In this document: positions 8,250 through 25,673 of the stretch, in pieces | Numbering within the stretch: position 1 is the stretch's first letter | Layout: each line of letters starts with the position of its first letter | Assembly: GCA_964363145.1 (NCBI GenBank) | Contig: CAYIHE010000002.1 | Coordinates: 1-33,412 of the forward strand | Reading direction: 5' to 3' | DNA from: an uncultured Gammaproteobacteria bacterium | Lineage (GTDB): Bacteria > Patescibacteriota > Patescibacteriia > Magasanikbacterales > GWA2-37-8 | Length of the DNA stretch: 33,412 bases | The notes under the pieces: generated by a model | What the model was told of the DNA's origin: nothing | Database searches by the model: none | The model's input: only the letters and a program-made list of their open reading frames with translations | Program-made: the position numbers and the translations under genes

Positions 8250-8263
8250 AAATTATTCTATTT

Positions 8264-8977: not shown

Positions 8978-9000
8978 ATAAGATATGAATTATATTTATT

Positions 9001-10950
9001 TTATTTATTTTTAATAGATAAATCTAAAACAAAATTTTTTCCATCATCATAAATTATTTTTCTAGTTTTGCTTAATTCCATTGTATAATCCTGAAAAGCC
9101 AGACCATTTTCTGAAATGGCGCGTAACAGCGGATTCACATGAGCCTTTAACATTCCCGATACTGAAACACGAGAAAAATTTGCCTCATTTCCGTAGGAAT
9201 ATGCCACATATTTAAGATTGTGCGATAAAAAATAGTCGGCCATCGCCTCACTGCCGGACCTTAACGGTATTCCGGGCGGCAAACTGGCTCCACCCGGAGT
9301 ATCGTTTATATAAACGTTATTTCTCTTAAAATCAAACAAAAAATTTCTATCCAATCTGGCAATAATCGTTTCTCCGACCGGTACTGCTTTTTGCAAATCC
9401 GAGTATTGTTTAAGTTCGCCTTCACTTACCAAATCAGAGTTCGTTAATCCAATCTTTGGCCGGCCGCCGTCAATGTTTAAACTGTATTTAATATTATCAA
9501 TTACAATTAAATCTTTTTGTAAATATGCGCCAAATAAAAAAATAATTATCATTAATCCAAGCAACCGACTGTTAAAATTAGGGAAACTGCGAAATTGCAA
9601 ACCGCCCGCTAATGACACGGCCGCGGTAAATAAAATGCCCGGAAAAAGATACGCAAAGCTGTAATAATACAAGCTATAGCCACCCATTAGCACCGCCAAT
9701 ACCAACACACCGGCGGATGAACTTAAAAATATCAACCATAGAAGTTTTTTTCCCTCACCGGCGACCAAACCATGCATCATCGCGCCAATGACCACTAACG
9801 GTAAAAGCGTAATTAAACTGTTAAAACCCTCAAAACAAAAACGCAATAAACTGTACAAATCAAATTGGATAACATGTTTAAAAGCGCCGTAAGCTGTGCC
9901 GTGGTAGCCTAAGCCAAAAACCGGATAAAGCAATGTGCCTGAAGACGCCAGCAAGGACAACATCCACGGAAAAAGAAAAATAAATACCGCCGCTACCGCA
10001 ATAAAAAACTCCTTTACGAGCGGACGAAAACTTCCCAAACTGCGGAAATAAATAAAATAATGCCCGACAAATAACATAACCGACACAATAATGTAACTTG
10101 ATTTTAAGGCGCAAAGCGCGGATAGAGGCAAGGCAACCATTAGAGCGTTGCGCAAGGGTGAATTATTTTTGAATTCTAAAACCTGATAAGATAATCTGAA
10201 AAAAAGAAAAATAACCGCGGCGGCGGTATAGGCGGCGGTAATGTTTAGCACCGGCGAAACAATAACCGTCATCACCAGAACTGCCCCCATGCCCAAATAT
10301 CGATCAACCTTCTTCTCCCTAAGAAAACCCACCAGAAGAAGTATGAGTATCAAATAGCCCAAGCCGTTGTCTGTTAGATGAAGGTTTTTGAAAGAAGTAG
10401 CGGAAAGAATAATGGCGTGTAAAAAGTATTGGCCGCCAAGCGATGATTCCACCCGGCGTTCACTAAAGGGATCATTGCCCAACGACCCGGTTTGCAGCAT
10501 CTTCGCCGGAAAAGACATATAGCCATGAAAATCATCGGCGCCATTAAAACCAAAAAAGGAGACGGCAAAACTATACCTAGCTAAAATAATAACTACAATA
10601 ACCGCTGTGGCGATAGAGAAAAATTTATTTTCTTTGACAAATACAAAAGCTTTCCGCGCCGACATTGGCCATGCCCGGCAATTTTTAATCAAAGAAAAGA
10701 AAAGCAATAAGACACCAAAAATAATAAATACCTGGATTGCCAACGGCGAAATGACACTGGCTAAATTTAAAATACCGCCCACTATCACGCTTAAAACCAG
10801 ACCAAAAGCCGCTTGCATGCCGATATCGAATTTCTTTCCCGGCGATAAAATTACATTAATAAGCCGCCCATAACCGATAAAGGCCAATAGCACGATGATC
10901 CCCCACGCAAAAGCTGTTAAATACTGAACTAGCATAATTAATTTAACCAA
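9001..10950 (-). CDS. large polytopic membrane protein (649 aa), unknown family; candidate GT-C-type glycosyltransferase or polymerase
   Basis: About 14 hydrophobic helices followed by a C-terminal hydrophilic domain of about 170 aa. An acidic DDFH motif (residues 139-142) lies in a loop predicted extracytoplasmic by the positive-inside rule. No family signature recognised. The start could be 10935 (MLVQYL). Confidence 0.55.
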   Translation of the reverse strand: MVKLIMLVQYLTAFAWGIIVLLAFIGYGRLINVILSPGKKFDIGMQAAFGLVLSVIVGGILNLASVISPLAIQVFIIFGVLLLFFSLIKNCRAWPMSARKAFVFVKENKFFSIATAVIVVIILARYSFAVSFFGFNGADDFHGYMSFPAKMLQTGSLGNDPFSERRVESSLGGQYFLHAIILSATSFKNLHLTDNGLGYLILILLLVGFLREKKVDRYLGMGAVLVMTVIVSPVLNITAAYTAAAVIFLFFRLSYQVLEFKNNSPLRNALMVALPLSALCALKSSYIIVSVMLFVGHYFIYFRSLGSFRPLVKEFFIAVAAVFIFLFPWMLSLLASSGTLLYPVFGLGYHGTAYGAFKHVIQFDLYSLLRFCFEGFNSLITLLPLVVIGAMMHGLVAGEGKKLLWLIFLSSSAGVLVLAVLMGGYSLYYYSFAYLFPGILFTAAVSLAGGLQFRSFPNFNSRLLGLMIIIFLFGAYLQKDLIVIDNIKYSLNIDGGRPKIGLTNSDLVSEGELKQYSDLQKAVPVGETIIARLDRNFLFDFKRNNVYINDTPGGASLPPGIPLRSGSEAMADYFLSHNLKYVAYSYGNEANFSRVSVSGMLKAHVNPLLRAISENGLAFQDYTMELSKTRKIIYDDGKNFVLDLSIKNK

Positions 10951-11531
10951 TTTTTCATGAACCTTTCTTTATTCTCCAGCGGAAAAATATACCACGCGAG
11001 AATTTCTCTTATAAGTTCATTCTCATTAATTTCCATATCTTTTTTCCTGCATTCCACTTTTATATTGGGCATAAAATTCCGATACAAGGGGTGTTTGAAG
11101 CTAAAATCATCAAAACCATATTTAGACAAGATCTTTTTAAATTTCCTTTTATCCCAAAAATCCAAATGGTTCGCCCAAGCCGCCTCTTGTGTGCCGAATA
11201 AATGCCTGCCTAACCTCATTCTGAAGAAAAACGGCACAAACGGAATCAATCCGCAAGTCCAAAAATAATCCGGAGTTTCAATTACCAATTTACCGCCCGG
11301 TTTAAGCCAGTGGCGCCATTTAGCCAGCAATTTTAACGCGTCAACCCTGTTAAAATGCTCAAAAAGGTGATGGCTTCTAATTTCATCCAAGGAATTATCG
11401 GCATATTCCAACGTACTGATGTCCTGATAAACATCCGCCTTAACATTCATAATTGTTTTGTCATCAGTCGGATAATCTATGTTTACATAACCTTCTAAAT
11501 ATGTGCCGCCACAACCTAGATGAATTTTCAT
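10938..11531 (-). CDS. SAM-dependent methyltransferase (type 11-like)
   Basis: MKIHLGCGGTYLEGYVNIDY start and LKPGGKLVIETP block typical of small class I methyltransferases. 197 aa. Confidence 0.7.
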   Translation of the reverse strand: MKIHLGCGGTYLEGYVNIDYPTDDKTIMNVKADVYQDISTLEYADNSLDEIRSHHLFEHFNRVDALKLLAKWRHWLKPGGKLVIETPDYFWTCGLIPFVPFFFRMRLGRHLFGTQEAAWANHLDFWDKRKFKKILSKYGFDDFSFKHPLYRNFMPNIKVECRKKDMEINENELIREILAWYIFPLENKERFMKNWLN

Positions 11532-11556
11532 ATATGATTTAGTATAATAAATTATT

Positions 11557-12255
11557 TTATTTTGCGTAAATATCTCCCCATAAATCCGGATTGTTTTTTA
11601 TTCTTTCTTCAATTGCCATGAATAGTCCGTCTTTACCGGTCCATGAACTTAATACCAGGCGCGGTTCCTCGCCAAGAGTAAAATTAAACTCCTTAAAACC
11701 AATTGACGCCAGCCGCTCTATGCATTTTTTGGCATTATCAAAAAACTCGCTGGTAAACTCAAAATTCAAACAATTTATTTTTTTAGTCAAACCACTTAAA
11801 ACTTCAAACTCAAAACCTTCCACATCTATTTTACAAAAATCCGGAAAGCCGTACTCACCTACCAAATTATCCAGCGTGGTCATTGGCACGGTGATTTCTT
11901 TATCAAACTTAAAATTTTTGAACCGGCCGGTTTTCCAATTTTCGGAAAAAGTAGACAGGCCTTTCTCGCTTGTACAAACACTCATCTTCATCTCTCCGGG
12001 TTCTCTGCCCAAACCTTTGCGTACCACCACTACATCTCGATCGGCAAAGTGCTTTTCCAATTTATCGGCACAATCGGGCTGCGGTTCTACCGCCACCACT
12101 TTTACGCCCAAGCGACTAAAAATTCTGGTACGATTGCCAATATTAGCGCCAATATCAAAAAACAGCTTATTTGGCCCGACAAACCGCTTAAAAAAACCAA
12201 AACTGCGAATATAATTTAGTGGTTTTTTTAGACGAAGGAAAAATCCGGATAACAT
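11557..12255 (-). CDS. FkbM-family methyltransferase
   Basis: FFDIGANIGNRTRIF...VVAVEPQP... and KIDVEGFEFEVLSG are hallmark FkbM blocks. Overlaps the upstream gene by 28 nt. Confidence 0.75.
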   Translation of the reverse strand: MLSGFFLRLKKPLNYIRSFGFFKRFVGPNKLFFDIGANIGNRTRIFSRLGVKVVAVEPQPDCADKLEKHFADRDVVVVRKGLGREPGEMKMSVCTSEKGLSTFSENWKTGRFKNFKFDKEITVPMTTLDNLVGEYGFPDFCKIDVEGFEFEVLSGLTKKINCLNFEFTSEFFDNAKKCIERLASIGFKEFNFTLGEEPRLVLSSWTGKDGLFMAIEERIKNNPDLWGDIYAK

Positions 12256-13187
12256 ATTTTAATTAATTCAACGAATTTTTTAGCGGCGATGATGTTGGTA
12301 AAATTAGCCAATGCGTAATCCCGCGGCTTAAAAACGCCGATTTTATCGTTAAAATCCCGCCATTTTTCCGGAAAATCATCAATTCCGATAAAAAACTTAC
12401 CGCACTCATCGGTTAAATACGGTGCGCTTATCTTACCATCAAACCACTTGTGCCCGCAATACTCCCAATACCCCCTATTCCACACCAATGTCGGCACATC
12501 ATGCATCCACGCTTCGCAAAGCGCCAATCCTTGGCTTTCGGACTCCGATAAGCAAATCATCCCCTTCGCGCGCGCTAATAAGGCAAAATAGCCTTTCTGA
12601 CGATAACGCCCATAACGAATGACTTTATAAGCCACATTATTAGAATCCAAGAATTTGATTATTTGCTTAAGCTGCGATTTTGGGCCGTTTTTATAATAAA
12701 CCAAAAACAAGTCCCGTCTTTGCGATAAATCGCAGTCGCTACTCGCTCCGGCCGGCCAAATTTTTATTTTATCCGCCAATTGCGGCGCTTGCGACACCCA
12801 ATAGTTTTTTGTCCAAACAGACGGAAACGGCAAAAGATCAATATTTTCATCGAGCATCAAACCATTCTCCTCTGTCGGTAGCACCGCTATCACCGGTCCG
12901 GCAATAATTTTGCTTACAATTCCCTTTTTTTTTAAATTAATAGCTTCGCGTAGAGCGTCGGCGCTTTCATTAATATAAACAAGCGCGCCATCGTCGATTT
13001 TTCCGGGATTTAATAAAAATTTTACCCCAATTTCCTTCAGCCCTGTAAGCAAACTTTTTGTTACCGCTTGCGGACCGCGGCGCCTTCCTAATACGTACCG
13101 GGCGCCTTTTTTTACAGTCGTTAAAAAGCGCGGCCACAAATTTTGTCCCGCTCCTTTTATTGGTTCGGTTAAAATAACGAGTGGCAT
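12228..13187 (-). CDS. divergent GT-B-fold glycosyltransferase (GT4-like)
   Basis: 319 aa. The C-terminal SESESQGLALCEAWMHDVPTLVW block resembles the E-x7-E donor-binding block of GT4. The N-terminal half is not recognisable. Confidence 0.5.
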   Translation of the reverse strand: MPLVILTEPIKGAGQNLWPRFLTTVKKGARYVLGRRRGPQAVTKSLLTGLKEIGVKFLLNPGKIDDGALVYINESADALREAINLKKKGIVSKIIAGPVIAVLPTEENGLMLDENIDLLPFPSVWTKNYWVSQAPQLADKIKIWPAGASSDCDLSQRRDLFLVYYKNGPKSQLKQIIKFLDSNNVAYKVIRYGRYRQKGYFALLARAKGMICLSESESQGLALCEAWMHDVPTLVWNRGYWEYCGHKWFDGKISAPYLTDECGKFFIGIDDFPEKWRDFNDKIGVFKPRDYALANFTNIIAAKKFVELIKICYPDFSFV

Positions 13188-13193
13188 ACTAGG

Positions 13194-13910
13194 CTATAAT
13201 TTATCCGTAATACCATGTCTCTTGTATATAACTTGGTTTTCGGCAACCATAAGCGGGTTGGCGCCGGCGCTTAGACCCCGGCCATCAACATTGAAAATTC
13301 CGGCGTTCTTTTTGGATAAAACAAATTTACCAAATAGTTTTGCCGCTCTCACGCACCAATCAAGATCCCCGCTGATTTTAAACTGTTCGTCAAAAGGACC
13401 CACCCGATTATAAAATTCTTTACTAATCATAAAAAATGGACCACAATGCATGGATCGGGAAAATTCTTGCTGATTATACGCGGGTGGGGAAATATGTCGA
13501 TATTTTACCGGCACGGCCATCGGTCCAAACCGTAATACCCAAAGAATATGAAAAGGGAAATAAACCAAATCGGCGCCATTTTTAATGAGATTATAACCGT
13601 CAATAATTGCGCCGGCAAACCGGGTATCGTCGGCATTCCAAAAAGCGATTACTTCACCTTTGGCCATTCGTACGCCTCGATTCCAACTGGCAAACACAGT
13701 TTCTCTGTCAACAACAATATACCTAAACCATGATTTATTTTTTAATTTGGCAATTACTTTTAATTCTTTTTCCGTCGGATTGTTAAATACTATAATAATT
13801 TCGAACCGCGCGCCTTTAGCTTCCAAGGATTTAGCAACCCTAGAAAGACGTGTAAAAAGCTTGTTGATATAACGACCGGAATTGTACAACGACAAAACTA
13901 TTGATATCAT
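13194..13910 (-). CDS. glycosyltransferase family 2-like
   Basis: MISIVLSLYNSGRYI... start, then NRGVRMAKGEVIAFWNADD (DxD-like). 238 aa. ATGA overlap with the upstream gene at 13907-13910. Confidence 0.6.
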   Translation of the reverse strand: MISIVLSLYNSGRYINKLFTRLSRVAKSLEAKGARFEIIIVFNNPTEKELKVIAKLKNKSWFRYIVVDRETVFASWNRGVRMAKGEVIAFWNADDTRFAGAIIDGYNLIKNGADLVYFPFHILWVLRFGPMAVPVKYRHISPPAYNQQEFSRSMHCGPFFMISKEFYNRVGPFDEQFKISGDLDWCVRAAKLFGKFVLSKKNAGIFNVDGRGLSAGANPLMVAENQVIYKRHGITDKL

Positions 13911-14818
13911 AAATTTTTATCCATTGAATCAACAATACGTTTTTTTTCAACTACAAATTGCTCCTCAATTTTCTCCAACGTAATTCCGTTTTCTTTTTCA
14001 TAGAGCGAAAAATAAGTAAGAAGCCGAAAATACGAATAAGCCAGCGCTTCCATAAAACCAACCACCCCGTTTTTCCAATTATTCTTATAAAATAACCAAA
14101 AATACCTAACCATAGCCGCCAACATTCTTATGACAGAAAATTTTTGTCCGTTGGCATATTTTTGCCCCGCCTCCGCTTCGGCATACGCCAAATGACTGGT
14201 GGCAAACTTTTTCAGGTTATATAAGCTAAAATGCCGTATAGCGTATTCATCGCGTACTGGTAAATGTAAGACTTCTTCTTTTTTGCCCAAAAATTTTCCC
14301 ATGCCATGAATTTGATTGTTGGAAAAATCAACTGAGTCTCTCTGAAAAAAACAGCCAACTGCCGTTTTTATCGCCGGATGAGCAGTTTTGCCCCAAAGAT
14401 ATGTATATAATGGGACAATTACTTGCTTATATTTATTCTGGCGAGAAATATCGGTAAGTTTTTCCAGCAGTGTTTTTGGCGCTAAATCATCAACATACTG
14501 CCAAAACAACCATTTCTTGCCGGTATTGGCCAAAACAAAATCAAGCATTTCTTTGGTTTCACCAAGCGCGACCCCGCCCTTAGTTCCTTCCATACCGGCT
14601 ATATTAATTTTGGGCCGTTGTAAAAATTTAGCTCCGTATTTTTGCGCTATTTCACCGGTTTTGTCAGTACTGCCGCCATCTAAAACAATTACCTCGCCGT
14701 ATTTAATAAAATTACGCACCGGATATTCAATGCGCTTTTCTTCGTTAAAAGTAAAAATAATAAAGGCGATGCTAGAATCTTGCATACTATTTCTTTTTAT
14801 TGAGGAAATATTTATCAC
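13907..14818 (-). CDS. glycosyltransferase family 2 (WaaE/KdtX-like)
   Basis: IAFIIFTFNEEKRIEYPVRNFIKYGEVIVLDGGSTDKTGEIAQKYGAKF. A more likely start is the ATG at 14783-14785 (MQDSSIAF...), which removes the 32-nt overlap. Confidence 0.7.
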   Translation of the reverse strand: MINISSIKRNSMQDSSIAFIIFTFNEEKRIEYPVRNFIKYGEVIVLDGGSTDKTGEIAQKYGAKFLQRPKINIAGMEGTKGGVALGETKEMLDFVLANTGKKWLFWQYVDDLAPKTLLEKLTDISRQNKYKQVIVPLYTYLWGKTAHPAIKTAVGCFFQRDSVDFSNNQIHGMGKFLGKKEEVLHLPVRDEYAIRHFSLYNLKKFATSHLAYAEAEAGQKYANGQKFSVIRMLAAMVRYFWLFYKNNWKNGVVGFMEALAYSYFRLLTYFSLYEKENGITLEKIEEQFVVEKKRIVDSMDKNL

Positions 14819-15698
14819 ATTTAATTAAAATCAAAAACTTTTTTATCAACCCTTTTGCGGCAATCCAATATCCTCTACCCATAAAATAGACAAATGCCCC
14901 AATTTTTGATTGCGGTAAATCATACAAATCCTTAATCCATAAAAAATCCTTAAACGCCCGCATGTTTCTCCGCTGGGTTGTTTCCAATCCAACAATATCA
15001 TCCCACCGCATATTATCACCGCGTGTTTTCACGATTAAATCTTGCAAAACCATAAACTTGGCGGTACGAAACGCCCGCAAAAAAACATGGGTATGAATTT
15101 GCAACGTGCCGATATATTTATTCAGTTCGTTGAAAGACACCCATGTTTCACGTAAAAAAACATGAGTCGACATACCGCCGAAAATCCCAATCACATTAAG
15201 ATACCCGCCGACCGACCTGACGAAATCCTGCAAACTTGCGTAAGGCTTGTCTTCCGCAACTTCAGCCCCGCCTTCACTAGGATAAGCCCGCATCATGTCG
15301 CGCGAATAACCGACACGGCCAACTAAATAATAAGGAATGTTGGTGGTTAATATTTTTTTGGTTAGTATAAAAAGCGCCCCGGGGAACAAAGCGTCATCAT
15401 CTCCCAAAGTAAAACAATATTTTCCTCCGGCCAACCTGACTGCGTTGTTTAAATTGCGATCAAATCCAATATTAGTTTCATTTCTATTATAAACAATATT
15501 TGGGTATTTTTCAATAAAACTAGCCACCATTTCTTTGGTGTTATCGGCGCTAGCGTTATCGGAAATTACCACTTCCACAACACCTGCCAGTGAGGGATCA
15601 GCATCAAACTGGCCGGTAATGCTTAACAGATTGTAACGCAAAAAATCCGCTCGATTAAAAGTGGGAATACAAATGCTTAGCAATTTTTGCTCCGGCAT
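14787..15698 (-). CDS. glycosyltransferase family 2
   Basis: LSICIPTFNRADFLRYNLLSI...VVISDNASADNT...LGDDD. 303 aa. Confidence 0.75.
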   Translation of the reverse strand: MPEQKLLSICIPTFNRADFLRYNLLSITGQFDADPSLAGVVEVVISDNASADNTKEMVASFIEKYPNIVYNRNETNIGFDRNLNNAVRLAGGKYCFTLGDDDALFPGALFILTKKILTTNIPYYLVGRVGYSRDMMRAYPSEGGAEVAEDKPYASLQDFVRSVGGYLNVIGIFGGMSTHVFLRETWVSFNELNKYIGTLQIHTHVFLRAFRTAKFMVLQDLIVKTRGDNMRWDDIVGLETTQRRNMRAFKDFLWIKDLYDLPQSKIGAFVYFMGRGYWIAAKGLIKKFLILIKCDKYFLNKKK

Positions 15699-15701
15699 AT
15701 A

Positions 15702-16682
15702 TTATTCAAAATTTATCCGCTCTTTTTCTATCACCAAAGGCCGGCGCTTAACTTGAGCATAAATGGCTCCAATATATTCACCCAAAATGCCTATAAAAAA
15801 TAGTTGGATGGAAGAAAACAAGAAAATACCAATGGTAACCGGGGCCAAACCGGCTTGAAATCGATCCCAAAACAGAAGTTTATAAATCAAATAGACCATG
15901 CCGACCGCAAAACTGATGAGCGACATACCGAAACCGATAAAACTGGCTAAGCGCAACGGCAATTTGGAATGATTAACAAAACCAAGCATGGCTACATCGT
16001 ATAATCTGTAAAAATTATTTGAACTTTTGCCTTTTTTACGCTGGGATTGCACATAATCTATTTTGGCCATGGAAAAACCAAGCTCGCTAATTAACCCGCG
16101 TAAGTACGGATCCGGATCATCCACTACTTTTAAAGTTTCTATAACCTGTCTGTCATACAAGGCAAAACCGTTGAAATTTTTTATCTGCTCTGTTTCGGCG
16201 ATTATTTTAATTAAATTATAATATAATTTTCTCACGGCAAACATTAACGGACTTTCTTCACTTTTATTTTTAATGCCAACGACTATTTTGTAACCTTCAT
16301 CCCATTTTTTAATAAAATCTTTTATTAGACCGGGCGGATCCTGTAAATCGCAATACAACAATACCACCGCGTCCCCTTTTGTCTGGAGCATGGCGTAATA
16401 AGGAGATTTTAACTGACCAAAGTTGCGCGCGTTAACAATTATTTTTACATGTTTATCTTGCGCGGCTATTTCTTTTAGAATCGCCACGGTTTTGTCGACC
16501 GAAGCGTTGTCAATAAATATGTGCTCGTAATTATAGCCACATTCGGCCATTACTTTTTTCACTTGATTATAAACCTCGGCCGCGTTGGCTTCTTCGTTAT
16601 AGCAAGGGGTAACAATGCTAATTAGTTTATTTGCACCAGACATACGCGTGTAGTTAATTATATTTTTCAAAAAATTTCTCAA
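15702..16682 (-). CDS. polyprenyl-phosphate glycosyltransferase (GtrB/ArnC/DPM1-like GT2 with C-terminal TM hairpin)
   Basis: ISIVTPCYNEE...IFIDNASVDKT...LYCDLQDPP (DxDLQxPP hallmark) plus two C-terminal hydrophobic helices (LPLRLASFIGFGMSLISFAVGMVYLIY and APVTIGIFLFSSIQLFFIGILGEYI). The start is possibly the ATG at 16643 (MSGANK...). Confidence 0.8.
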   Translation of the reverse strand: MRNFLKNIINYTRMSGANKLISIVTPCYNEEANAAEVYNQVKKVMAECGYNYEHIFIDNASVDKTVAILKEIAAQDKHVKIIVNARNFGQLKSPYYAMLQTKGDAVVLLYCDLQDPPGLIKDFIKKWDEGYKIVVGIKNKSEESPLMFAVRKLYYNLIKIIAETEQIKNFNGFALYDRQVIETLKVVDDPDPYLRGLISELGFSMAKIDYVQSQRKKGKSSNNFYRLYDVAMLGFVNHSKLPLRLASFIGFGMSLISFAVGMVYLIYKLLFWDRFQAGLAPVTIGIFLFSSIQLFFIGILGEYIGAIYAQVKRRPLVIEKERINFE

Positions 16683-17958
16683 AGCACGACACCATATACT
16701 CTACCATTTCCGCGCTTAATCCTGGATACACCCCAATCCAAAAAGTATTGCTCATAACCATATCCGTGTTGGCTAAATCGCCGACCGCGCGATAATTTAC
16801 TTTGTTGCTGATAAAATATGGCTGTTTGGTAATATTGCCGGCAAACAAATAGCGAGTGGCTATGTTACAACCCTGCAAATACTGAATCAGCTCATCTCTA
16901 CCAAACGGAGCGCCGGCTTTGACCGTAAGCAAAAAGCCAAACCAGCTTGGATCGGCTTTTTCTTCCCATTTTGGAAGAACAAAATAATTTTCGTATTTCT
17001 TCAGACCGTCATACAAAATTTTAAAATTATCTTTGCGTTTCGCCACAAAACCTTCCAATTTTTCCAATTGAGCGACTCCCAAAGCGGCCTGCATATCGGT
17101 GGCTTTTAAATTATAGCCAATTTCCGAATAAATATATTTATGATCATAACCAAACGGCAGATCGCCTAACTTCCAACCAAATCTCATGCCGCAAGTATTA
17201 TCACTTCCGGTTTTACACCAGCAATCTCGCCCCCAATCCCGCATTGAGCGAATAATTTTGTTGAGTACGCCGTCATTGGTAAATATCGCGCCGCCTTCAC
17301 CCAAAGTAATATGATGCGCCGGATAAAAACTGCAAGTGGCAACATGGCCAAAAGTTCCCGTAAATTTACTATCGTACTTAGAACCGAGCGCGTCACAATT
17401 ATCTTCTATAAACCAAAAGTTGTTTGCCTTGCACAATTCCATGATGGCGGTTAAATCCATCGGATTGCCAAGTGTGTGCGCCAACATTATCGCTCTAGTT
17501 TTAGGTGTAATCGCTTTTTTTATTTCCTCAATATTGGCATTGTAAGTTCCCAAATCAACATCCACAAAAACCGGCGCTAGATTATTCTGCATTATAGGAT
17601 TAATGGTGCTTGGAAAACCCGCGGCTACGGTTATTACTTCGTCTCCGGGTTTTAATCTTTTTTCACCCAACTTCATGGAGGTAAGGGCGGTAAGCGCCAA
17701 CAAATTGGCCGACGACCCGGAATTAACTAAAATTGCGTGTCTGACCCCCAACCAACGGCTAATTTTGGCTTCAAATTGGCTAGTAAACCGGCCCTCGGTC
17801 CACCAACCGTCCAAAACCGCCTCTACGCCTAAAATCATCTCCTGTTCATCAAATACTTTGCCGGAAACGGGCACGGAAGATTCTCCGGGAATAAATTGTT
17901 TCTTGGAAAATTTTTCCTGATAATGCTTAATTATCTCCGCTTTTAAATTTTCTTCCAT
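16654..17958 (-). CDS. rfbH: PMP-dependent NDP-4-keto-6-deoxyhexose 3-dehydrase, E1 type (RfbH/DdhC/AscC-like) with [2Fe-2S] Cys motif
   Basis: 434 aa, DegT/DnrJ/EryC1 fold (VNSGSSANLLA, DNCDALG, GEGG). His occupies the Schiff-base Lys position (FYPAHHITLGEGG). Cys188/246/248/256 give C-X57-C-X1-C-X7-C, counted directly. RDWGRDCWC...DNTCG and GYDHKY blocks are present. Confidence 0.85.
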   Translation of the reverse strand: MEENLKAEIIKHYQEKFSKKQFIPGESSVPVSGKVFDEQEMILGVEAVLDGWWTEGRFTSQFEAKISRWLGVRHAILVNSGSSANLLALTALTSMKLGEKRLKPGDEVITVAAGFPSTINPIMQNNLAPVFVDVDLGTYNANIEEIKKAITPKTRAIMLAHTLGNPMDLTAIMELCKANNFWFIEDNCDALGSKYDSKFTGTFGHVATCSFYPAHHITLGEGGAIFTNDGVLNKIIRSMRDWGRDCWCKTGSDNTCGMRFGWKLGDLPFGYDHKYIYSEIGYNLKATDMQAALGVAQLEKLEGFVAKRKDNFKILYDGLKKYENYFVLPKWEEKADPSWFGFLLTVKAGAPFGRDELIQYLQGCNIATRYLFAGNITKQPYFISNKVNYRAVGDLANTDMVMSNTFWIGVYPGLSAEMVEYMVSCFEKFFEKYN

Positions 17959-17969: not shown

Positions 17970-18941
17970 TTATATTTTTTTATTTTCAATTTTTAACCAG
18001 TGTTCAATCATCTCGTCCATCATGGCCTCAAAAGTACACTCCGGCTTCCATCCTAATTCCCGGCGAATTCTGGACGAATCCCCTTTTAAATACGGCAATT
18101 CTTCCGGTCGCAAGTATCTGGCATTTATTTGCACATATTCTTTATAATCCAGCCCCAGCTTTTTAAATACATATTCACACATATCCCGAACCGACCTGGT
18201 CTCGCCCGTTGCCACCACCCAATCTCCGGGTTTGTCTTGCTGTAAAATTAAGTGCATGGCCCGAACATAATCACGGCTGTGCCCCCAATCGCGGTATGAA
18301 TCCATATTACCCATTTCTAAGACTTTTTGCAGGCCTAATTTAATTCTAACAGCCGCCTTGACGACTTTATTTGTTACAAAATTACTTCCTCTTCGCGGGC
18401 TTTCGTGGTTAAATAATATACCGTTGGAGGCGTGCAGTTTATAACCGTTGCGATAATTGCGAACTATATTGTACCCAAATACTTTGGCGCAACCATAAGG
18501 CGACACCGGAGTCATCTTGGTGGTTTCTCTTTGATAGCCGTCTTCATCCACCGAAGTGCCAAACATTTCCGACGAACTTGCCTGATAAAACTTGGCATTG
18601 GGACAGATATTTTTATAGGCCTCCAAAATATTTAACACTCCTAGCGCGTTGGTTTGCACAGTAAATTGCGGAATGTCCGAACTAATTCGGACGTGGCTCT
18701 GCGCGGCTAAATTATATATTTCGTCAGGCTGAAACTTTCTTAAGGCGCGTTCTAATGATGACTGATCCAACAAATCACCATACTCCAATTTTACGTCAAG
18801 GTGATTTATTCTATTTTCTTGGTGTTCAACGGTGGAATTTCTCCTAACTATGCCGCTGACTTCATAGCCAAGAGACAGGAGGTATTCGGATAAATAACTG
18901 CCGTCTTGTCCCGCTATGCCGGTTATAAAAGCTTTTTTCAT
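17970..18941 (-). CDS. gmd: GDP-mannose 4,6-dehydratase
   Basis: AFITGIAGQDGSYLSEYLL, FYQASSSEMFG, SPYGCAKV, NGILFNHESPRRG and MGNMDSYRDWGHSRDYV are near-identical to canonical Gmd blocks. Confidence 0.9.
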   Translation of the reverse strand: MKKAFITGIAGQDGSYLSEYLLSLGYEVSGIVRRNSTVEHQENRINHLDVKLEYGDLLDQSSLERALRKFQPDEIYNLAAQSHVRISSDIPQFTVQTNALGVLNILEAYKNICPNAKFYQASSSEMFGTSVDEDGYQRETTKMTPVSPYGCAKVFGYNIVRNYRNGYKLHASNGILFNHESPRRGSNFVTNKVVKAAVRIKLGLQKVLEMGNMDSYRDWGHSRDYVRAMHLILQQDKPGDWVVATGETRSVRDMCEYVFKKLGLDYKEYVQINARYLRPEELPYLKGDSSRIRRELGWKPECTFEAMMDEMIEHWLKIENKKI

Positions 18942-18957
18942 AATTAATTTGCTTGGA

Positions 18958-19650
18958 TTATTTATTTAAATTATTTCTTATATATTGAAAAACTTCAGTG
19001 GCGTCCGGGTAATCATTGTCAGCAAACTCTGGGTGGCATTCATACCCATCGCCGAATTTTATATTTAGACCCAACTCGTCGGTAATTTCTTTTAAAGATA
19101 TCGTATTTCTTGAATTCACGTTTTCAATCCCGTTTTTTGTTAATTTTGAAAAAATAATTTCTGCCGCCTTTTCTACATCTATAAAACTATACCTGGAATC
19201 GCCGGACACAAATAAAGGATTTCCTTTTATGATATCGTATATTATTCCTTTGTTTAGCCCCTCGCCAAATAAATTTCCCAATCTAATAACTAAATTGTTT
19301 TGGTTAGAATTTAACACCAACTGCTCCGCCAAATGCTTGTGTATTCCATACGGATGGTTTAATTGGAGTTTCGCGGAAACAGTGCTTATTTGCACCAGTT
19401 TTTTATAGCGCCAATTATAGACAATTTCCGCCGTTAGCCCAACCGTGGCCTTAAAATCCGCCAAAGGATTATTTAACGCCCAATATCTTTTTGAGGGCGT
19501 GGCGGAATTTATCAGTATGTCAAATTCGCTATTGATAAAATCGTTATAATTTTTTTTATTTATCCCTATCAATTCGTTGTCGGTTTTGGCGATAAATCCG
19601 CACAAAGCCGATCCAACAAAACCGCCGCATCCAATTACACCTATCCGCAT
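18958..19650 (-). CDS. short NAD(P)-binding SDR, probable NDP-sugar 4-ketoreductase
   Basis: 230 aa. MRIGVIGCGGFVGS Rossmann start and HPYGIHK (YxxxK). Shorter than typical extended SDRs. Confidence 0.5.
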   Translation of the reverse strand: MRIGVIGCGGFVGSALCGFIAKTDNELIGINKKNYNDFINSEFDILINSATPSKRYWALNNPLADFKATVGLTAEIVYNWRYKKLVQISTVSAKLQLNHPYGIHKHLAEQLVLNSNQNNLVIRLGNLFGEGLNKGIIYDIIKGNPLFVSGDSRYSFIDVEKAAEIIFSKLTKNGIENVNSRNTISLKEITDELGLNIKFGDGYECHPEFADNDYPDATEVFQYIRNNLNK

Positions 19651-19673
19651 ATATGTAAAACTAAAAATTTATT

Positions 19674-20075
19674 TTAAATGATAGGATCAACTCTAAACGT
19701 GTCTGACTCATAATCTTTGCCGCCTCTTTTGCCTTCGGAAAATACTATAAACTCATTCCCCTTATCTGTTATTTTAAGCGTATGTATTTCGTTTGGTCCG
19801 GTTGATATCAGATCGCCGATTTTAGTCAAATACATCTTGGGCCCTTCTTTTGAATCCACGGGTTTATACCAATATTCCAGCTCGCCTTTGGTAATTAACA
19901 TATGCTGGGTTGTTTCCTTGTGATAATGATTGCCGCGAATAACGTTTGGTTCAGACACAACCACCGCCACATGGTGTATTTGAGTATTATAAAAAACATC
20001 GGCGATTACGCCCCTATCATCTTTGTGAACCTCCAAAGCCGAATCTTCGTTTTCGTATATATTTATTACTTTCAT
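19674..20075 (-). CDS. cupin-fold NDP-sugar epimerase/ketoisomerase (RmlC/FdtA/WxcM-like)
   Basis: 133 aa. DDRGVIADVF and RGNHYHKETTQ (RG-x-H-x-H) blocks as in small sugar-nucleotide cupins. First gene after the 194-nt intergenic region. Confidence 0.5.
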   Translation of the reverse strand: MKVINIYENEDSALEVHKDDRGVIADVFYNTQIHHVAVVVSEPNVIRGNHYHKETTQHMLITKGELEYWYKPVDSKEGPKMYLTKIGDLISTGPNEIHTLKITDKGNEFIVFSEGKRGGKDYESDTFRVDPII

Positions 20076-20085
20076 ATTTGAAATG

Positions 20086-20126
20086 AGTGAGAGAAAAAGT
20101 TAAATGTTTTTAACTTTTTCCGAGCG
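20086..20126 (-). promoter_or_regulatory. conserved leader module, copy A (11-mer / hairpin / 11-mer) upstream of the cupin gene
   Basis: The minus strand reads CGCTCGGAAAA, a stem-loop, TTTCTCTCACT, 9 nt, then ATG. A perfect 12-bp stem GAAAAAGTTAAA/TTTAACTTTTTC forms (plus-strand 20093-20104 / 20109-20120). The same two flanking 11-mers occur at 30926-30962. Confidence 0.45.
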
Positions 20127-20158
20127 AATGAGAATATATGCGGCGAAGCCCCTATATT
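20122..20158. repeat. 37-nt perfect direct repeat, copy 1
   Basis: GAGCGAATGAGAATATATGCGGCGAAGCCCCTATATT, identical to 20232-20268. Confidence 0.9.
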
Positions 20159-20231
20159 CGAAATGAGTGAATTAAATGATTTTAGAGAAAATAATGAGCT
20201 TGCTCGATTATTTTTGAATAAAATTATTTAT

Positions 20232-20268
20232 GAGCGAATGAGAATATATGCGGCGAAGCCCCTATATT
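20232..20268. repeat. 37-nt perfect direct repeat, copy 2 (abuts the stop codon of the C-methyltransferase gene)
   Basis: Identical 37-mer, 110 nt from copy 1. Together with ATATT(T/C)GAAATGAGTGA at 20074-20090 and 20154-20170, this defines two diverged tandem modules. Confidence 0.9.
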
Positions 20269-20269
20269 T

Positions 20270-21523
20270 CTATACTTCTATAAATTTAATTTTTGAATTT
20301 ATCTTTAATAATATTTGTTTTAAGTTGTCCGATAAATTCCAAGATAAAATCAAGGCATAGACCTCGTCGTAATCCGCAAATACTTCATCGGCCACAATTG
20401 GTATCCTGGTTAAAGGAGTAAACTTGCCCTGTTTATATACCGAACTGTCCGTTACGTATTTTAATACGGACGCATCTAATTTATAATAATTTAAAAAGGT
20501 GTTAGCTTTGGCCGCGGCTCCCACTCCGATAATCGGTGCGTCTGGATAATTAACTTTAAGATTATACAAACGCTGAAGGAATAGGTTTCTTCTGCCAAGC
20601 AGTTCTTTTTGCCAACCAACATAAGTCTCCGGTTTAAATAAACCCAGCTCTTCTTCGTTATTAATGGCGTCGGCTACTTTATTTACCAAAACCGGTGCGG
20701 CTGATTTCTTGGCATAAACGCGGAGTGAACCGCCGTGATAATCCACTTTTTCAAAATCAAATATCTCCAATCCGGCTGCTTTTAATAAATTAAAAGATGA
20801 TTTAATCGTAAAATAGCTTACATGCTCATGATATATTTGATCAAACTTTTTTGATTTAAATGTGTCTTCCCAGTAAGGCAGTTCAAACACAAACACGCCA
20901 CTATCGCTTAACAAATCTGCCGCGCCTTTGGCAAAATCCAAAGGATTATTAGAGTGATTAAACACGTTGTTGGCTATAATCAACTCCGCTGTCCCCTGTT
21001 TATTTTTAATATTTTTAGCCAGTTTTTCGGTAAAACAATCATTAATGGCATTCATGCCTTTTCCCGACATTAAATCGCACATTTCTTTTGACGTATCCAC
21101 GCCCAAAGTTACATTGTCAGAAGAAAAATGATTTAGTAAATAGCCATCATTACTGCCGATTTCAATAACTGTTTTATTTTTTATGACGAAACGCTCCGCA
21201 ATGGTTTTATGATAATTATCCCAATGATTCCGTGAAAATTGCGAATTGGCCGATGTGTACGAATAGGCGTATAAATTATACCTTTCAAAGTCGTCGGTAA
21301 TGTACCCCAACTGAATTTGGCCGGAATTTGGATTAAGATAAACTTCCAAAGGAAAAACCGGTTCTGACAAACCAAGCTGATCTTTATTTATAAAAGTATC
21401 TGCATAGGGGTGCATCCCTAAATCAACAATCTTGACTACCGGTTCGCCAGTTATAAGGCAATTACTGGTTAATCGGCTGTTTGTCTGTTTGGATTCCGTT
21501 GTATGGTCCGTTTTTAAATTCAT
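20270..21523 (-). CDS. NDP-hexose C-methyltransferase (TylCIII/NovU-type, SAM-dependent)
   Basis: 417 aa. N-terminal C..TGEPVVKIVDLGMHPYAD (zinc-binding-domain-like, but only one Cys is visible), YSYTSANSQ, SAM motif VIEIGSNDGYLL, and C-terminal DYHGGSLRVY typical of sugar C-methyltransferases. Confidence 0.8.
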   Translation of the reverse strand: MNLKTDHTTESKQTNSRLTSNCLITGEPVVKIVDLGMHPYADTFINKDQLGLSEPVFPLEVYLNPNSGQIQLGYITDDFERYNLYAYSYTSANSQFSRNHWDNYHKTIAERFVIKNKTVIEIGSNDGYLLNHFSSDNVTLGVDTSKEMCDLMSGKGMNAINDCFTEKLAKNIKNKQGTAELIIANNVFNHSNNPLDFAKGAADLLSDSGVFVFELPYWEDTFKSKKFDQIYHEHVSYFTIKSSFNLLKAAGLEIFDFEKVDYHGGSLRVYAKKSAAPVLVNKVADAINNEEELGLFKPETYVGWQKELLGRRNLFLQRLYNLKVNYPDAPIIGVGAAAKANTFLNYYKLDASVLKYVTDSSVYKQGKFTPLTRIPIVADEVFADYDEVYALILSWNLSDNLKQILLKINSKIKFIEV

Positions 21524-21872
21524 AGAATTTAGTGTTATCCGCTAATACTTCCAAACTATGGCCTCCTCTGAACAGGACAATGCAATCTCCCGGTTCTAAT
21601 ATAATTTCCGTTAAAAAAGAGTCGTCCAGGTCATACAAAACCGCCTTGAGCTTTCCCGACAGTATTACCCACGCCTCTTGGGTGAGCTCGGTTTCCCTGT
21701 GTTGTGGATTGTGTTTATGCGCCTTTATTTTAACGTCTAATTTCAAATTCCTGGCGCAAACCTGCACAAGCTCTTCGGCCGGACTTAAATCCTCCCGATA
21801 ATCGGAAATGTCTTTGTTTGCCACGCAAGAAGCTATTAGTGTTTGCGGGGATACTTTGGAAAATACCTTCAT
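21462..21872 (-). CDS. cupin-fold protein, WbuC-like
   Basis: 136 aa. HKHNPQH...E metal-type block and C-terminal YEFKNGPY resembling WbuC-family cupins of O-antigen loci. The 3' end overlaps the C-methyltransferase ORF by 62 nt. Confidence 0.45.
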   Translation of the reverse strand: MKVFSKVSPQTLIASCVANKDISDYREDLSPAEELVQVCARNLKLDVKIKAHKHNPQHRETELTQEAWVILSGKLKAVLYDLDDSFLTEIILEPGDCIVLFRGGHSLEVLADNTKFYEFKNGPYNGIQTDKQPINQ

Positions 21873-21934
21873 AATAGCGCTTAAACCGTGCCTTTTGACA
21901 CGACTGTATTATGTCAACATTATAATCTTTTCCT

Positions 21935-24664
21935 TTAATTTTGGCAACCTCCGCGGCTATTTAGCAACATAGCCATATCTTCGCTGCTTGTAGCAACAAC
22001 CGCATAGTGATTTTTTATCGTTTTATTGATTCTGATATCAACAAGATCGTTGCCGAATTGAGTATAAAATTCGCTAAACGGATAAATAAATACTTTGCTG
22101 GTTTTATTGCATTTTAAAAAATCAACCGCGTAATCCGACTCACGCTTAAAAAACATTTCGGTAAAAGAAGGAATATCCAAAACCGAACGCGTATGCGACT
22201 CGCCGTAATACACGCCATCAAACCCCCCGGCCAAAATTATCACGCTCTCTCCTTCTGCGGTATTACTTTTTATAAAATCTATATTCTTTGTTAATGGTGT
22301 TTCTGATTTCTGAAAAAAAGAGTTAAGCCCAATGGACGACCATTTATAATACCCACGGCTTTTATATAAAATACTAAGCGGGGATGAAAGAATAAAAAAT
22401 ATTACCATTAAAAATAACAAGGCATGCCCGTACAATTTTGGATGAGAAACAACTATACTATATAAAATATCGGCAAAAATTGTCAATAAAATAAGGGGCA
22501 GATATAACGGCAAATAAAATGTCGCGTCGTGCGATCTGCCTTCGTAGTAACTAAACAAGCCCATACCTAAAATAGACAAAAGAAAAATAGAAGTATTTCT
22601 CCAATCACCGTCTTTAACCAGCCATTTTTTGATTGATAACAACAAACCGCTAAGAAAAACTAGCATTACCAAAATCCATACGTGAGGAAAAGGCATGGCA
22701 ATCATCATAAAACCGTCATAAAACATTTTTTGATACAGAAAAAACATGGCCAGGTTTGGAACATGACCGCTTCGTAAAAATGTATAACCGGCATAACCGG
22801 CAAAAACAACCGTCAGCGCCAGCGCGCCAAGAAAAAGATGCCGGGCGATATTTTTAATCATTATTTTTTTGTCACCGTTAAACGCTTCCGTGTAAATCAA
22901 GGCCAATATCCAAGAAACAAAAACCATAATTCCGGAATCAAAGTTCCATAAAATAGACAGGGCGCTTATGATAAATAATAAATAATAAATAATCCGGTTT
23001 CTGTTTTTAAAATAAATAGAAGAGAGAAGCAAAAGTAGGCTGGGAAAAAAAGTCCTAATCGGCCAATACTGAAAATACGGATACGGATTGGCCGAACCAT
23101 CCAATAAATAAATCGCGATCGTGCTAAATCCTAACAATAAAATTATATTATTTTTTACTAACCGGCGAAGGAAAAGAAAAATAAATAGAAAACTCAAGCT
23201 TAACAGCAAGCCCATTATTGTTGTAACAGATAAGATGTTTAAACCGATTAGCTTAAATATAGGCTCTAAAAATACAGGATACAGACCATACTGGCTGGAT
23301 AAATTTACTAACAACGTCTTACCGGCCATTACTTGTGAAATGGGATAAAAAATCGGATTGGCGTGATTAACAATATTTTGTATATCAATTAAACTGGAGG
23401 TGTTTACATTGATGACGCTTATAAAAAAAACCACTGCCATTAACAGGCCGGAAAACAAATATACTAAATTTTTAATTAAATTATCATATTTATCTTTTTT
23501 TAGTAAAAGAATAATATAAACGCCGACTGGAAATAAGACTAAGCCGTATAAATACTTGCCTACACCGCTAAGAAAAAAATTCTTTCCGGTGTACATAAAA
23601 TTACTAACCGCCAAACCGATATACGCAATTGCAAAAAGCAACAGTGGGGCGGCAATGCTGGCAATAAAATACAAACGACCAATAATTTCGTCTTTTATTT
23701 TAGAAACATAGCGACTAAATAATTTATAAAAAATAAGCAACAAAAACGGGCTTAATAAAATACTAAGTGAGAATTGCGCTCTTTCTACTGTTTTGGGTAT
23801 AAAAGACGGCAAAAACTTATCTAAATAAATTTTAGAGGCTTCCGCTAATATGTGGGCGGTGTCCGGTTTATAAAAAGACTTTATAAAAAGACATAACAAA
23901 AATAAAACGATAGAAGTGGCAATAATGCTTAAAGCAAAAACCACTAACTCTCGCTTGCTACGCAAATCCATATCCGGATCATTAACATTGGTATTTTTGC
24001 GTTTAACAATAGATAGAATGAAAAAAATTATTATTAAAACCACAACTAACAACAAAAAAGTTTTAACCGCGGAAACTATCGGTTTTTGCACCAAATACTC
24101 ACTGCCTTTAAAATTCAAGCTGGACAAAAGGCCGGAGACTAAGGGAATTTGCGTATGCCACGGCTTTACTTTCACATTATCCGGCGCTTCATACACAAAA
24201 TAACCGGGACTGCCGTTTATGTCGCTCATAAACCAGCCGCCGCTTTTTGTTTCTATTTTTTTCCACTCGGACAAAAACCGATCTTTGGTAAAAACAAAAT
24301 CTTTTTCTCCAAGTGAAATAGTGATTTTTGAAAACTGGCCAAGACTTTCACTATTCATGCCTACTAATATTTTATTTACGAAAGTTTGACTCGGATTATT
24401 CCACTCATTTTTATTTCCTTCCAATATTCTGGTTAAATTCATGGTATTGCCGGCCCGCGATAATGTTGCCAGCACTCTGATAGATGTCAGATTGACCGCG
24501 TCCAACCCGTCAACTTTTATTGACAATGGATCAAGAACAGCTCGGCTGGTAATAACCGCTATAATATTCCCCATCCAAATAACGGCAAAAATAAAAAAAC
24601 AGGACAAAATTATGGCCCCCAAGTATTTTTTTAAAAAAACAAACATCTCGCCAATCATAAACAT
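21935..24664 (-). CDS. very large polytopic membrane protein (909 aa), unknown family
   Basis: N-terminal TM anchor, a hydrophilic domain of about 160 aa (residues ~40-200), at least 16 hydrophobic helices, and a C-terminal soluble domain of about 140 aa. No recognisable motif. Confidence 0.55.
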   Translation of the reverse strand: MFMIGEMFVFLKKYLGAIILSCFFIFAVIWMGNIIAVITSRAVLDPLSIKVDGLDAVNLTSIRVLATLSRAGNTMNLTRILEGNKNEWNNPSQTFVNKILVGMNSESLGQFSKITISLGEKDFVFTKDRFLSEWKKIETKSGGWFMSDINGSPGYFVYEAPDNVKVKPWHTQIPLVSGLLSSLNFKGSEYLVQKPIVSAVKTFLLLVVVLIIIFFILSIVKRKNTNVNDPDMDLRSKRELVVFALSIIATSIVLFLLCLFIKSFYKPDTAHILAEASKIYLDKFLPSFIPKTVERAQFSLSILLSPFLLLIFYKLFSRYVSKIKDEIIGRLYFIASIAAPLLLFAIAYIGLAVSNFMYTGKNFFLSGVGKYLYGLVLFPVGVYIILLLKKDKYDNLIKNLVYLFSGLLMAVVFFISVINVNTSSLIDIQNIVNHANPIFYPISQVMAGKTLLVNLSSQYGLYPVFLEPIFKLIGLNILSVTTIMGLLLSLSFLFIFLFLRRLVKNNIILLLGFSTIAIYLLDGSANPYPYFQYWPIRTFFPSLLLLLSSIYFKNRNRIIYYLLFIISALSILWNFDSGIMVFVSWILALIYTEAFNGDKKIMIKNIARHLFLGALALTVVFAGYAGYTFLRSGHVPNLAMFFLYQKMFYDGFMMIAMPFPHVWILVMLVFLSGLLLSIKKWLVKDGDWRNTSIFLLSILGMGLFSYYEGRSHDATFYLPLYLPLILLTIFADILYSIVVSHPKLYGHALLFLMVIFFILSSPLSILYKSRGYYKWSSIGLNSFFQKSETPLTKNIDFIKSNTAEGESVIILAGGFDGVYYGESHTRSVLDIPSFTEMFFKRESDYAVDFLKCNKTSKVFIYPFSEFYTQFGNDLVDIRINKTIKNHYAVVATSSEDMAMLLNSRGGCQN

Positions 24665-25557: not shown

Positions 25558-25608
25558 AAAATTAGACAAAAATTGCTCTTTTACGGTATTTTTTAGTGTA
25601 CCTAAAAT

Positions 25609-25627
25609 AACCCGATTAGTCAACCTG
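25609..25627 (+). repeat. IS-end-like fragment
   Basis: AACCCGATTAGTCAACCTG matches AACCCGATTAGCAACCTG at 32329-32346, the inner part of the right end of the IS, except for a single-nt insertion. Confidence 0.4.
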
Positions 25628-25673
25628 CTTTTTGGGCTAAATAAAAGGGTTTTTAAAACGATATTTTTGATAC

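Follow-up and report, generated by a model that had tools for sequence, protein, structure and literature searches.

An E1/RfbH-type sugar 3-dehydrase beside a GDP-mannose 4,6-dehydratase gene in a groundwater contig: probable role in an erwiniose-type pathway

Which nucleotide sugar does an iron-sulfur (Fe-S) 3-dehydrase act upon when the gene directly upstream of its own encodes Gmd, a 4,6-dehydratase of guanosine diphosphate (GDP)-mannose? The question is raised by the rfbH gene of contig CAYIHE010000002.1 (assembly GCA_964363145.1), of which positions 1 to 33,412, the whole stretch of DNA analysed, are referred to here as the window. The window is from a Hainich groundwater assembly, and the sources of its best homologues label these as Patescibacteria or Magasanikbacteria; the genome is probably that of a member of the Patescibacteria. 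An earlier interpretation made from the letters alone (the sequence-only reading) recognised an E1-type enzyme in a GDP-mannose context and proposed that it may use a GDP-linked substrate or, alternatively, rely on generic reductases. The evidence presented here makes it probable that the enzyme is a standard E1/RfbH protein using a cytidine diphosphate (CDP) sugar in a pathway of the erwiniose type, with the Gmd derived from an inserted cassette and the electrons supplied by general redox proteins.

Erwiniose is made in Pectobacterium atrosepticum by ErwE, ErwF, ErwI and ErwJ together with the products of ddh genes (Steitz et al. 2022, PMC9306805). In this pathway a dehydrogenase gives acetaldehyde, from which an aldolase makes 4-hydroxy-2-oxopentanoate; ErwE couples the latter to CDP-4-keto-3,6-dideoxy-D-glucose and ErwF reduces the branch (PMC9306805). 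The window has the same set beside its E1 gene, which is an acetolactate synthase (ALS)-like thiamine diphosphate (ThDP) enzyme, a short-chain dehydrogenase/reductase (SDR), a BphI/DmpG-type aldolase and a BphJ/DmpF-type dehydrogenase.

The rfbH gene and its product

The rfbH open reading frame (ORF) is real. It lies on the minus strand at 16654–17958, with which the residue coordinates of the sequence-only reading agree, and encodes a 434 amino acid protein of the rfbH/ddhC/ascC type, that is, a nucleoside diphosphate (NDP)-4-keto-6-deoxyhexose 3-dehydrase (E1). The protein matches the NCBIfam equivalog RfbH (NF011936) at 692.8 bits over residues 4–432, against a cut-off of 423, and the Pfam family DegT_DnrJ_EryC1 at 315.7 bits. 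Its best phmmer match in the PDB is the Yersinia E1 entry 3BCX (559 bits, residues 7–430 on 11–433). Identity to Salmonella RfbH is 57%.

The alignment with E1 has a constant offset of 5. His215 (17314–17316), which sits in the motif SFYPAHHITLGEGG and replaces the Lys that binds pyridoxal 5'-phosphate (PLP) in aminotransferases, falls on E1 H220; PDB entry 3BB8, the H220K variant of E1, differs from 3BCX by a Lys at that position. The four Cys of the [2Fe-2S] ligand motif (17191–17397), C188 (17395–17397), C246 (17221–17223), C248 (17215–17217) and C256 (17191–17193), have the spacing C-X57-C-X1-C-X7-C and fall on E1 C193, C251, C253 and C261. Both the His at the PLP-Lys position and the E1-like Cys spacing had been pointed out from the translation, and alignment to 3BCX confirms that the Cys are homologous to the E1 ligands. 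Across 149 full-length RfbH homologues the His is invariant and the Cys are kept in 145 to 149, with the His and all four Cys retained together in 145. This conservation means that the motif is no chance pattern. The four-Cys [2Fe-2S] motif has been described in E1 and SpnQ and is absent from ColD, with a His in the place of the aminotransferase Lys (PMC8987622); the Cys residues of E1 are given as cluster ligands by Agnihotri et al. 2004, as cited in that review.

Judged by its sequence, the window gene is a genuine E1/RfbH/DdhC-type sugar 3-dehydrase, with a predicted dependence on pyridoxamine 5'-phosphate (PMP) and a [2Fe-2S] cluster, as the sequence-only reading had assigned it. ColD, the GDP-4-keto-6-deoxy-D-mannose 3-dehydratase of the colitose pathway, is the known enzyme that acts after Gmd. 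It belongs to the same superfamily and shares the His in place of Lys, but it is 390 amino acids long, is without a [2Fe-2S] cluster and is regenerated by transamination (PMC8987622), whereas the window protein has 434 amino acids and the four Cys. The ColD entry 2GMS scores only 198 bits against the window protein, compared with 559 bits for E1, and the protein is not of the ColD type; the distinction from ColD by length and cluster that had been drawn earlier is therefore sound.

Compared with the E1 proteins (AscC/DdhC/RfbH) of Yersinia pseudotuberculosis and Salmonella, the window RfbH has the same length, the same His for Lys and the four Cys at the same spacing. The systems around them differ. 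No E3 reductase (AscD/RfbI/DdhD) is encoded near the window gene, rfbF and rfbG are not visible on the contig, the steps that follow belong to a branched sugar (ThDP enzyme, aldolase) rather than to abequose, paratose or ascarylose, and the host is a probable member of the groundwater Patescibacteria.

Synteny, the contig end and the missing partners

Loci with RfbH relatives were collected from species-representative genomes and metagenomes (160 loci), about 18 were added around closer relatives, and probe proteins were mapped on all of them. Genome and metagenome contig scans with RfbH gave mainly relatives at 54–63% identity, and the close relatives were found through contigs encoding homologues of RfbH, DmpF and Gmd.

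The closest relative retrieved, L173, is collinear with the window at 82–85% DNA identity (blastn) up to the window's last base. L173 positions 3183–3569 (tktC) correspond to window 33412–33026, 3653–4270 (His_Phos) to 33026–32409, 5802–14861 (dmpF to the gene of a 909 amino acid membrane protein) to 31059–21959, and 14909–16743 (rfbH and a glycosyltransferase family 2 (GT2) gene) to 17972–16132. Protein identities between the two are 86% for RfbH, 95% for the ThDP enzyme, 92% for DmpF and 90% for the GT2 protein. The last 381 bases of the window (33032–33412, minus strand) encode the C-terminal 126 residues of the C subunit of a split transketolase (TktC), for which NCBIfam gives transketolase and Dxs C-terminal matches, the gene being cut by the window end. 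Of these residues, 105 are common with residues 180–305 of the L173 TktC.

The L173 operon is headed by genes for a nucleotidyltransferase, an SDR, TktN and TktC, and the same head is found in L174 and L175. For the nucleotidyltransferase of L173 the best family is glucose-1-phosphate cytidylyltransferase at 266 bits, a score lowered by a miscalled start, with the next family at 56; its L174 homologue matches PDB 1TZF at 209 bits and the next entry at 54. The best NCBIfam family of the L173 SDR is CDP-glucose 4,6-dehydratase (202 bits). Its motif SSDKAYG is like the TSDKCYE of RfbG and unlike the STDEVYG of RmlB and the SSSEMFG of Gmd, and we take the Asp-Lys pair within it to be a mark of the CDP-glucose dehydratases. 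Members with at least 90% identity to the L173 rfbF, SDR and tkt genes exist in ENA assemblies. The simplest reading is that rfbF and the CDP-type dehydratase gene are missing from the window because the contig ends inside tktC. On the L173 order, tktN, the CDP-type dehydratase gene and rfbF would be expected 0.5–3.1 kb past base 33412, and we infer that the rfbF-like and CDP-type 4,6-dehydratase genes occupy 1.4–3.1 kb beyond the contig end. What led the first reading astray was the adjacency of genes at the edge of a contig, and synteny with close relatives resolves the question.

Within the window itself, family and probe searches found no nucleotidyltransferase, no CDP-glucose dehydratase and no E3 of the Fer2/ferredoxin-NADP reductase (FNR) type. 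The earlier statement that no RfbF, RfbG or E3 ORF is present in the window is thus accurate, the RfbI probe being negative there as well. This probe was the authentic Salmonella RfbI (L169 6112–7086), and the RfbF, RfbG and RfbH probes were taken from the same Salmonella rfb region.

Context was counted in the 83 loci whose rfbH gene has 4 kb or more on each side. rfbF was within the locus in 62 and a CDP-type 4,6-dehydratase gene in 61, while an ALS-like ThDP enzyme was encoded in 43. Gmd was present in five, never without rfbF, and E3 in none. The CDP-type dehydratase of these loci is either a canonical RfbG or an SDR of 320–335 amino acids that always comes after rfbF and has CDP-glucose 4,6-dehydratase as its best NCBIfam family (~200 bits). 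A long Gmd is encoded directly upstream of rfbF in L014, L020 and L108; L025 and L095 contain both genes with others between them. Gmd is a frequent neighbour of CDP genes in mixed glycan clusters, and given the recurrent adjacency of long Gmd and rfbF, proximity of Gmd does not imply that RfbH uses its product. Two loci with RfbH 80% identical (L084 and L170) have neither rfbF nor Gmd within reach, and carry unclassified SDRs and an Fcl-like gene. In L085 (RfbH 77% identical) no 4,6-dehydratase was identified, a 328 amino acid SDR at the locus edge being only partly covered.

The RfbH sequences are in keeping with this. Among 85 RfbH proteins from rfbF-linked loci, 157 columns are at least 90% conserved, and T117S, L181F, V225I and H279E are the four deviations of the window RfbH. 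Of these, three are common to L173, and the conservative L181F alone is specific to the Gmd-adjacent copies. By this comparison the window RfbH is without apparent specificity-type changes relative to its rfbF-linked homologues.

The approximately 178 loci (L004–L178) and the window gave no E3/RfbI homologue at a distance of up to about 10 kb from rfbH, using tblastn with E up to 1e-3 and phmmer with E up to 10 against all six-frame ORFs. A regular expression for E3-like ferredoxin/FNR motifs also gave no match over the loci, although this was a weak test and is superseded by the RfbI probe. Being without E3 is normal for environmental rfbH genes and does not set the window apart. A nearby E3 is a trait of the enterobacterial system rather than of the enzyme family, and the dedicated E1/E3 pair may be restricted to clusters of the enterobacterial type. 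The Fe-S Cys are kept in 145 of 149 proteins although E3 is absent from all environmental loci.

SpnQ, the deoxythymidine diphosphate (dTDP)-4-keto-2,6-dideoxyglucose 3-dehydrase of the spinosyn pathway, is an Fe-S/PMP E1 homologue that is likewise without a dedicated E3, and it works with general ferredoxin or flavodoxin reductases (PMC8987622). The likeness is limited to this independence of E3, SpnQ serving a dTDP-2,6-dideoxy sugar, and no 2,3-dehydratase, rmlA or rmlB was found in the window. Use of generic reductases as by SpnQ, which the sequence-only reading had offered as its alternative, is plausible in view of the survey. The electrons for the E1 cluster most probably come from a general ferredoxin/flavodoxin system and not from a dedicated E3. 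The textbook E1/E3 pair seems to be a special case of the enterobacterial systems, and electron supply independent of E3 may be the rule.

The inserted cassette and the nucleotide of the substrate

Aligned with L173 by blastn, the window shows breaks at 21959 and 17972, which in L173 are the two ends of a 48 bp intergenic gap. Between these breaks lies an inserted cassette of 4.0 kb (17973–21934, minus strand), positioned precisely between the stop codon of the membrane protein gene and the ribosome-binding region of rfbH, and L173 is without it at that site. The cassette has five genes, encoding a WbuC-like cupin, a 3-C-methyltransferase, a second cupin, a short SDR and Gmd. L176 and L177 carry these five genes in the same order and at the same site. 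The L178 copy of the cassette is located behind a tetratricopeptide repeat (TPR) protein gene, is followed by Fcl (GDP-L-fucose synthase, 491 bits) and does not adjoin rfbH. Because the cassette is found away from rfbH in L178, it is the cassette, rather than rfbH, to which Gmd is linked by descent.

The window Gmd (17970–18941, minus strand) is of the short form. It scores 384 bits with TIGR01472, slightly under the cut-off of 415, and 386 bits with PF16363. Its best PDB matches are all true GDP-mannose 4,6-dehydratases at ~313 bits, compared with 74 for a CDP-glucose dehydratase, and more than 100 database proteins with at least 80% identity to it carry the name Gmd. Its motifs are SSSEMFG, YxxxK and NHESPRRG; a Ser in place of the Thr is also known from other Gmds (PMC3539893). 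The identification of the adjacent 4,6-dehydratase as Gmd therefore holds.

The other cassette genes, all on the minus strand, are those of sugar modification. At its head is the WbuC-like cupin gene (21462–21872; TIGR04366 35 bits, cut-off 42), which has the same place in L176–L178. The NDP-sugar 3-C-methyltransferase (20270–21523) has the Pfam domains Methyltransf_13, Methyltransf_23 and Methyltransf_14, and in the PDB it matches MtmC (4RV9) at 174.7 bits and, along its full length, KijD1 and TcaB9 at ~130 bits. The second cupin (19674–20075, 133 amino acids, PF14667), with weak similarity to the Cap5F cupin domain (E 0.002), is a candidate epimerase. The short SDR (18958–19650, 230 amino acids, Pfam Epimerase 44 bits) is a candidate 4-ketoreductase and always travels with the cupin and the C-methyltransferase. 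Gmd, a 3-C-methyltransferase, an epimerase and a reductase are the set proposed for a GDP route to virenose (PMC3539893). By analogy, the cassette probably makes a separate GDP-6-deoxy-3-C-methylhexose.

Several observations weigh against a CDP-sugar substrate for the window RfbH. A gap of 11 bp separates the end of Gmd from rfbH, which follows it on the same strand, making co-transcription probable. The contig stops before the expected rfbF and CDP-type dehydratase genes, and no contig of the population shows rfbF. In the relatives, the scores of the rfbF-like protein (261–266 bits, cut-off 300) and of the dehydratase-like protein (~202 bits, cut-off 278) are below the NCBIfam equivalog cut-offs, and the dehydratase-like SDR has PDB matches that do not single out a subfamily. 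L178 has two Gmd genes, at 7823–8896 and 3520–5454, namely the short one that ends the cassette before Fcl and a long one. The long one, a canonical Gmd (TIGR01472, 591 bits), is directly upstream of tktN-tktC-dmpF-dmpG-ThDP, the place of rfbF and the CDP-type dehydratase gene in the relatives, and a nucleotidyltransferase was not seen in this 13 kb contig. Finally, the likeness to ErwE and ErwF is one of the described enzyme set (PMC9306805) and not of directly compared sequences.

Some of these points also speak for the proposal that the Fe-S E1-type enzyme, with the ThDP enzyme, the reductase and the GT2 protein, accepts GDP-4-keto-6-deoxy-D-mannose supplied by the neighbouring Gmd. The gene directly upstream of rfbH is that of Gmd, rfbF and rfbG are absent from the window, the Gmd-rfbH junction recurs in L176 and L177, and the tkt-dmpFG-ThDP operon of L178 begins with a long Gmd; of these, the junction and the L178 operon are the sole positive indications. 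If true, this would be a new nucleotide specificity for the class, its first GDP-linked member, with a GDP-based pathway to a branched 3,6-dideoxy sugar, and the 3-dehydrases would gain a fourth nucleotide class. However, all contigs with Gmd only break off upstream, while the L173 RfbH, for all its identity to that of the window, is part of an operon that begins with rfbF-like and CDP-type dehydratase genes and is without the cassette at that site. The ThDP enzyme, so close to that of L173, the SDR and the GT2 protein would need to have switched nucleotide too, and the conserved RfbH columns are free of specificity-type substitutions. The window Gmd is an ordinary, highly conserved short form whose L178 orthologue is paired with Fcl, and long Gmd genes recur directly upstream of rfbF itself. 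A GDP-linked substrate is therefore quite improbable. Of the sequence-only reading as a whole, the E1-type enzyme stands and a non-dedicated reductase is plausible, whereas the GDP-linked substrate, drawn from the adjacency of Gmd and the missing rfbF and rfbG, is unsupported.

A nucleotide-promiscuous RfbH could instead serve both pathways, taking a CDP-sugar for the branched sugar and the Gmd product for the 3-C-methyltransferase cassette. The window, L176 and L177 have all kept the cassette at its insertion site directly upstream of rfbH, and more distant 3-C-methyltransferase homologues come after rfbF, the dehydratase gene and rfbH in L023, L059 and L128. Against this, the cassette functions away from rfbH in L178, the conserved columns hold no sequence signature of promiscuity, and there is no biochemical precedent in a review that gives only CDP (E1), GDP (ColD) and dTDP (SpnQ) preferences (PMC8987622); such a dual role seems improbable. 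It is very improbable that, for want of E3, the protein carries out no reductive E1 chemistry in vivo and acts as a ColD-like dehydratase or a 4-aminotransferase. The absence of E3 from the window and from the surroundings of all homologues would fit, as would the aminotransferase activity that SpnQ has when reductase is not supplied (PMC8987622). Yet the strong conservation of the Fe-S ligands in loci without E3 (145 of 149) argues for use of the cluster, the downstream ThDP enzyme requires a 4-keto-3,6-dideoxy acceptor (PMC9306805), and SpnQ itself functions with the general reductases.

The standard CDP-sugar role thus remains the probable one, and by comparison with the related clusters the substrate of the window RfbH is most probably CDP-4-keto-6-deoxy-D-glucose. 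The window rfbH becomes a matter of routine annotation, as a typical E1/RfbH in a branched-dideoxyhexose cluster, with a mobile Gmd/3-C-methyltransferase cassette as a by-product of the analysis.

The branched-sugar pathway and neighbouring genes

In the proposed pathway the rfbF-like cytidylyltransferase and the CDP-type 4,6-dehydratase would supply the substrate of RfbH. RfbH would then remove the C3 hydroxyl of the NDP-4-keto-6-deoxyhexose, one step toward an acyl-branched 3,6-dideoxyhexose. The DmpF-like dehydrogenase would give acetaldehyde, which the DmpG-like aldolase would join to pyruvate to form 4-hydroxy-2-oxopentanoate; the ThDP enzyme would put the decarboxylated unit on the C4 keto group of the E1 product, and the SDR would then reduce the branch. 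The sugar would be loaded onto polyprenyl phosphate by the GT2 enzyme, with onward transfer by the 909 amino acid membrane protein.

The genes for these steps are on the minus strand. The acetylating acetaldehyde dehydrogenase (DmpF/BphJ/ErwJ-like, 30034–30996) scores 368.5 bits with TIGR03215 (cut-off 282) and the 4-hydroxy-2-oxovalerate aldolase (DmpG/BphI/ErwI-like, 29037–30041) 369.6 bits with TIGR03217 (cut-off 286). The ThDP enzyme of the acetolactate synthase family, with the presumed role of ErwE/YerE (27227–29017), has the three Pfam domains TPP_enzyme_N, M and C and scores 380 bits with TIGR00118 (cut-off 538). The SDR reductase in the position and putative role of ErwF/YerF (24673–25752, Pfam Epimerase 87 bits) probably has its true start at Met66, at about nt 25557; its homologues have 292–301 amino acids and always come after the ThDP enzyme. 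These four genes accompany rfbH in many loci and are syntenic in all close relatives. The possibilities that this SDR is Fcl and that an epimerase at 2367–3269 is a CDP-type dehydratase were rejected, Fcl scores being only 46 and 73 bits and GalE being best for the second. Erwiniose-type branched-sugar clusters seem widespread in uncultured groundwater bacteria, probable Patescibacteria included.

Relative to the erwiniose cluster the window has additional genes, for the split transketolase, a histidine phosphatase, a PgfS-like GT2 protein and the 909 amino acid membrane protein, as well as an antisense phosphoenolpyruvate (PEP) carboxylase gene and the inserted Gmd/3-C-methyltransferase cassette. 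Directly downstream of rfbH is the GT2 gene (15702–16682, minus strand), for a polyprenyl-phosphate glycosyltransferase of PgfS/ArnC/GtrB-like type (NCBIfam PgfS 188 bits and ArnC 125 bits, both below cut-off), whose linkage to rfbH was seen in 22 of the first 80 loci. The 909 amino acid polytopic membrane protein (21935–24664, minus strand) has no Pfam or NCBIfam match; it is 65–79% identical in L085, L087, L173 and L174, where its gene is directly upstream of rfbH, and it is a candidate GT-C-type transferase. The pair suggests transfer by way of a polyprenyl-phosphate sugar. Another polytopic membrane protein, of 649 amino acids and without a Pfam family, is encoded at 9001–10950 (minus strand), with counterparts of 644–645 amino acids in L085–L087 by size and position. 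Both membrane proteins may be GT-C-like transferases using the polyprenyl-phosphate sugar made by the adjacent GT2 enzyme.

A histidine-phosphatase family gene (32393–33025, minus strand, Pfam His_Phos_1) is also found in L171, L172/L175 and L173. Between it and dmpF is an IS256-like transposase gene (31131–32327, plus strand; NF033543 40 bits, below cut-off), in the collinearity gap at window 31059–32409, where L173 has two small genes for proteins of 201 and 228 amino acids. The gene for the PEP carboxylase, of archaeal type (25703–27235, plus strand, TIGR02751 484 bits), lies antisense inside the glycan operon, its ends overlapping the ThDP enzyme gene and the longest ORF of the SDR, and this arrangement is kept in L173 and L176. 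Outside the window, about 18 loci (L017, L066, L069, L078, L079, L083, L087, L094, L106, L173, L174 and others) have a TktN/TktC pair linked to rfbH, and about half of these have a second, distant DegT-like paralogue (~30% identity). The role of a split transketolase in these sugar clusters is not accounted for by the erwiniose scheme.

A GT11 (fucosyltransferase-family) gene is present at 6514–7365 (minus strand), and a GDP-fucose synthase was not found in the window; the GT11 product could use a GDP-6-deoxyhexose. Two exact 37 bp direct repeats (20122–20158 and 20232–20268) are located in the spacer between the methyltransferase and cupin genes of the cassette (20076–20269), a junction that in L176 has only 5 bp. 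The repeat element is found again, along with the start context CTCACTCATTTC(G/A)AATATG, in L173 (1–69) and L175 (2060–2126 and 5658–5745) upstream of rfbF-like genes, and in L171 (900–970) upstream of the cupin gene. It may be a lineage-specific promoter or leader element.

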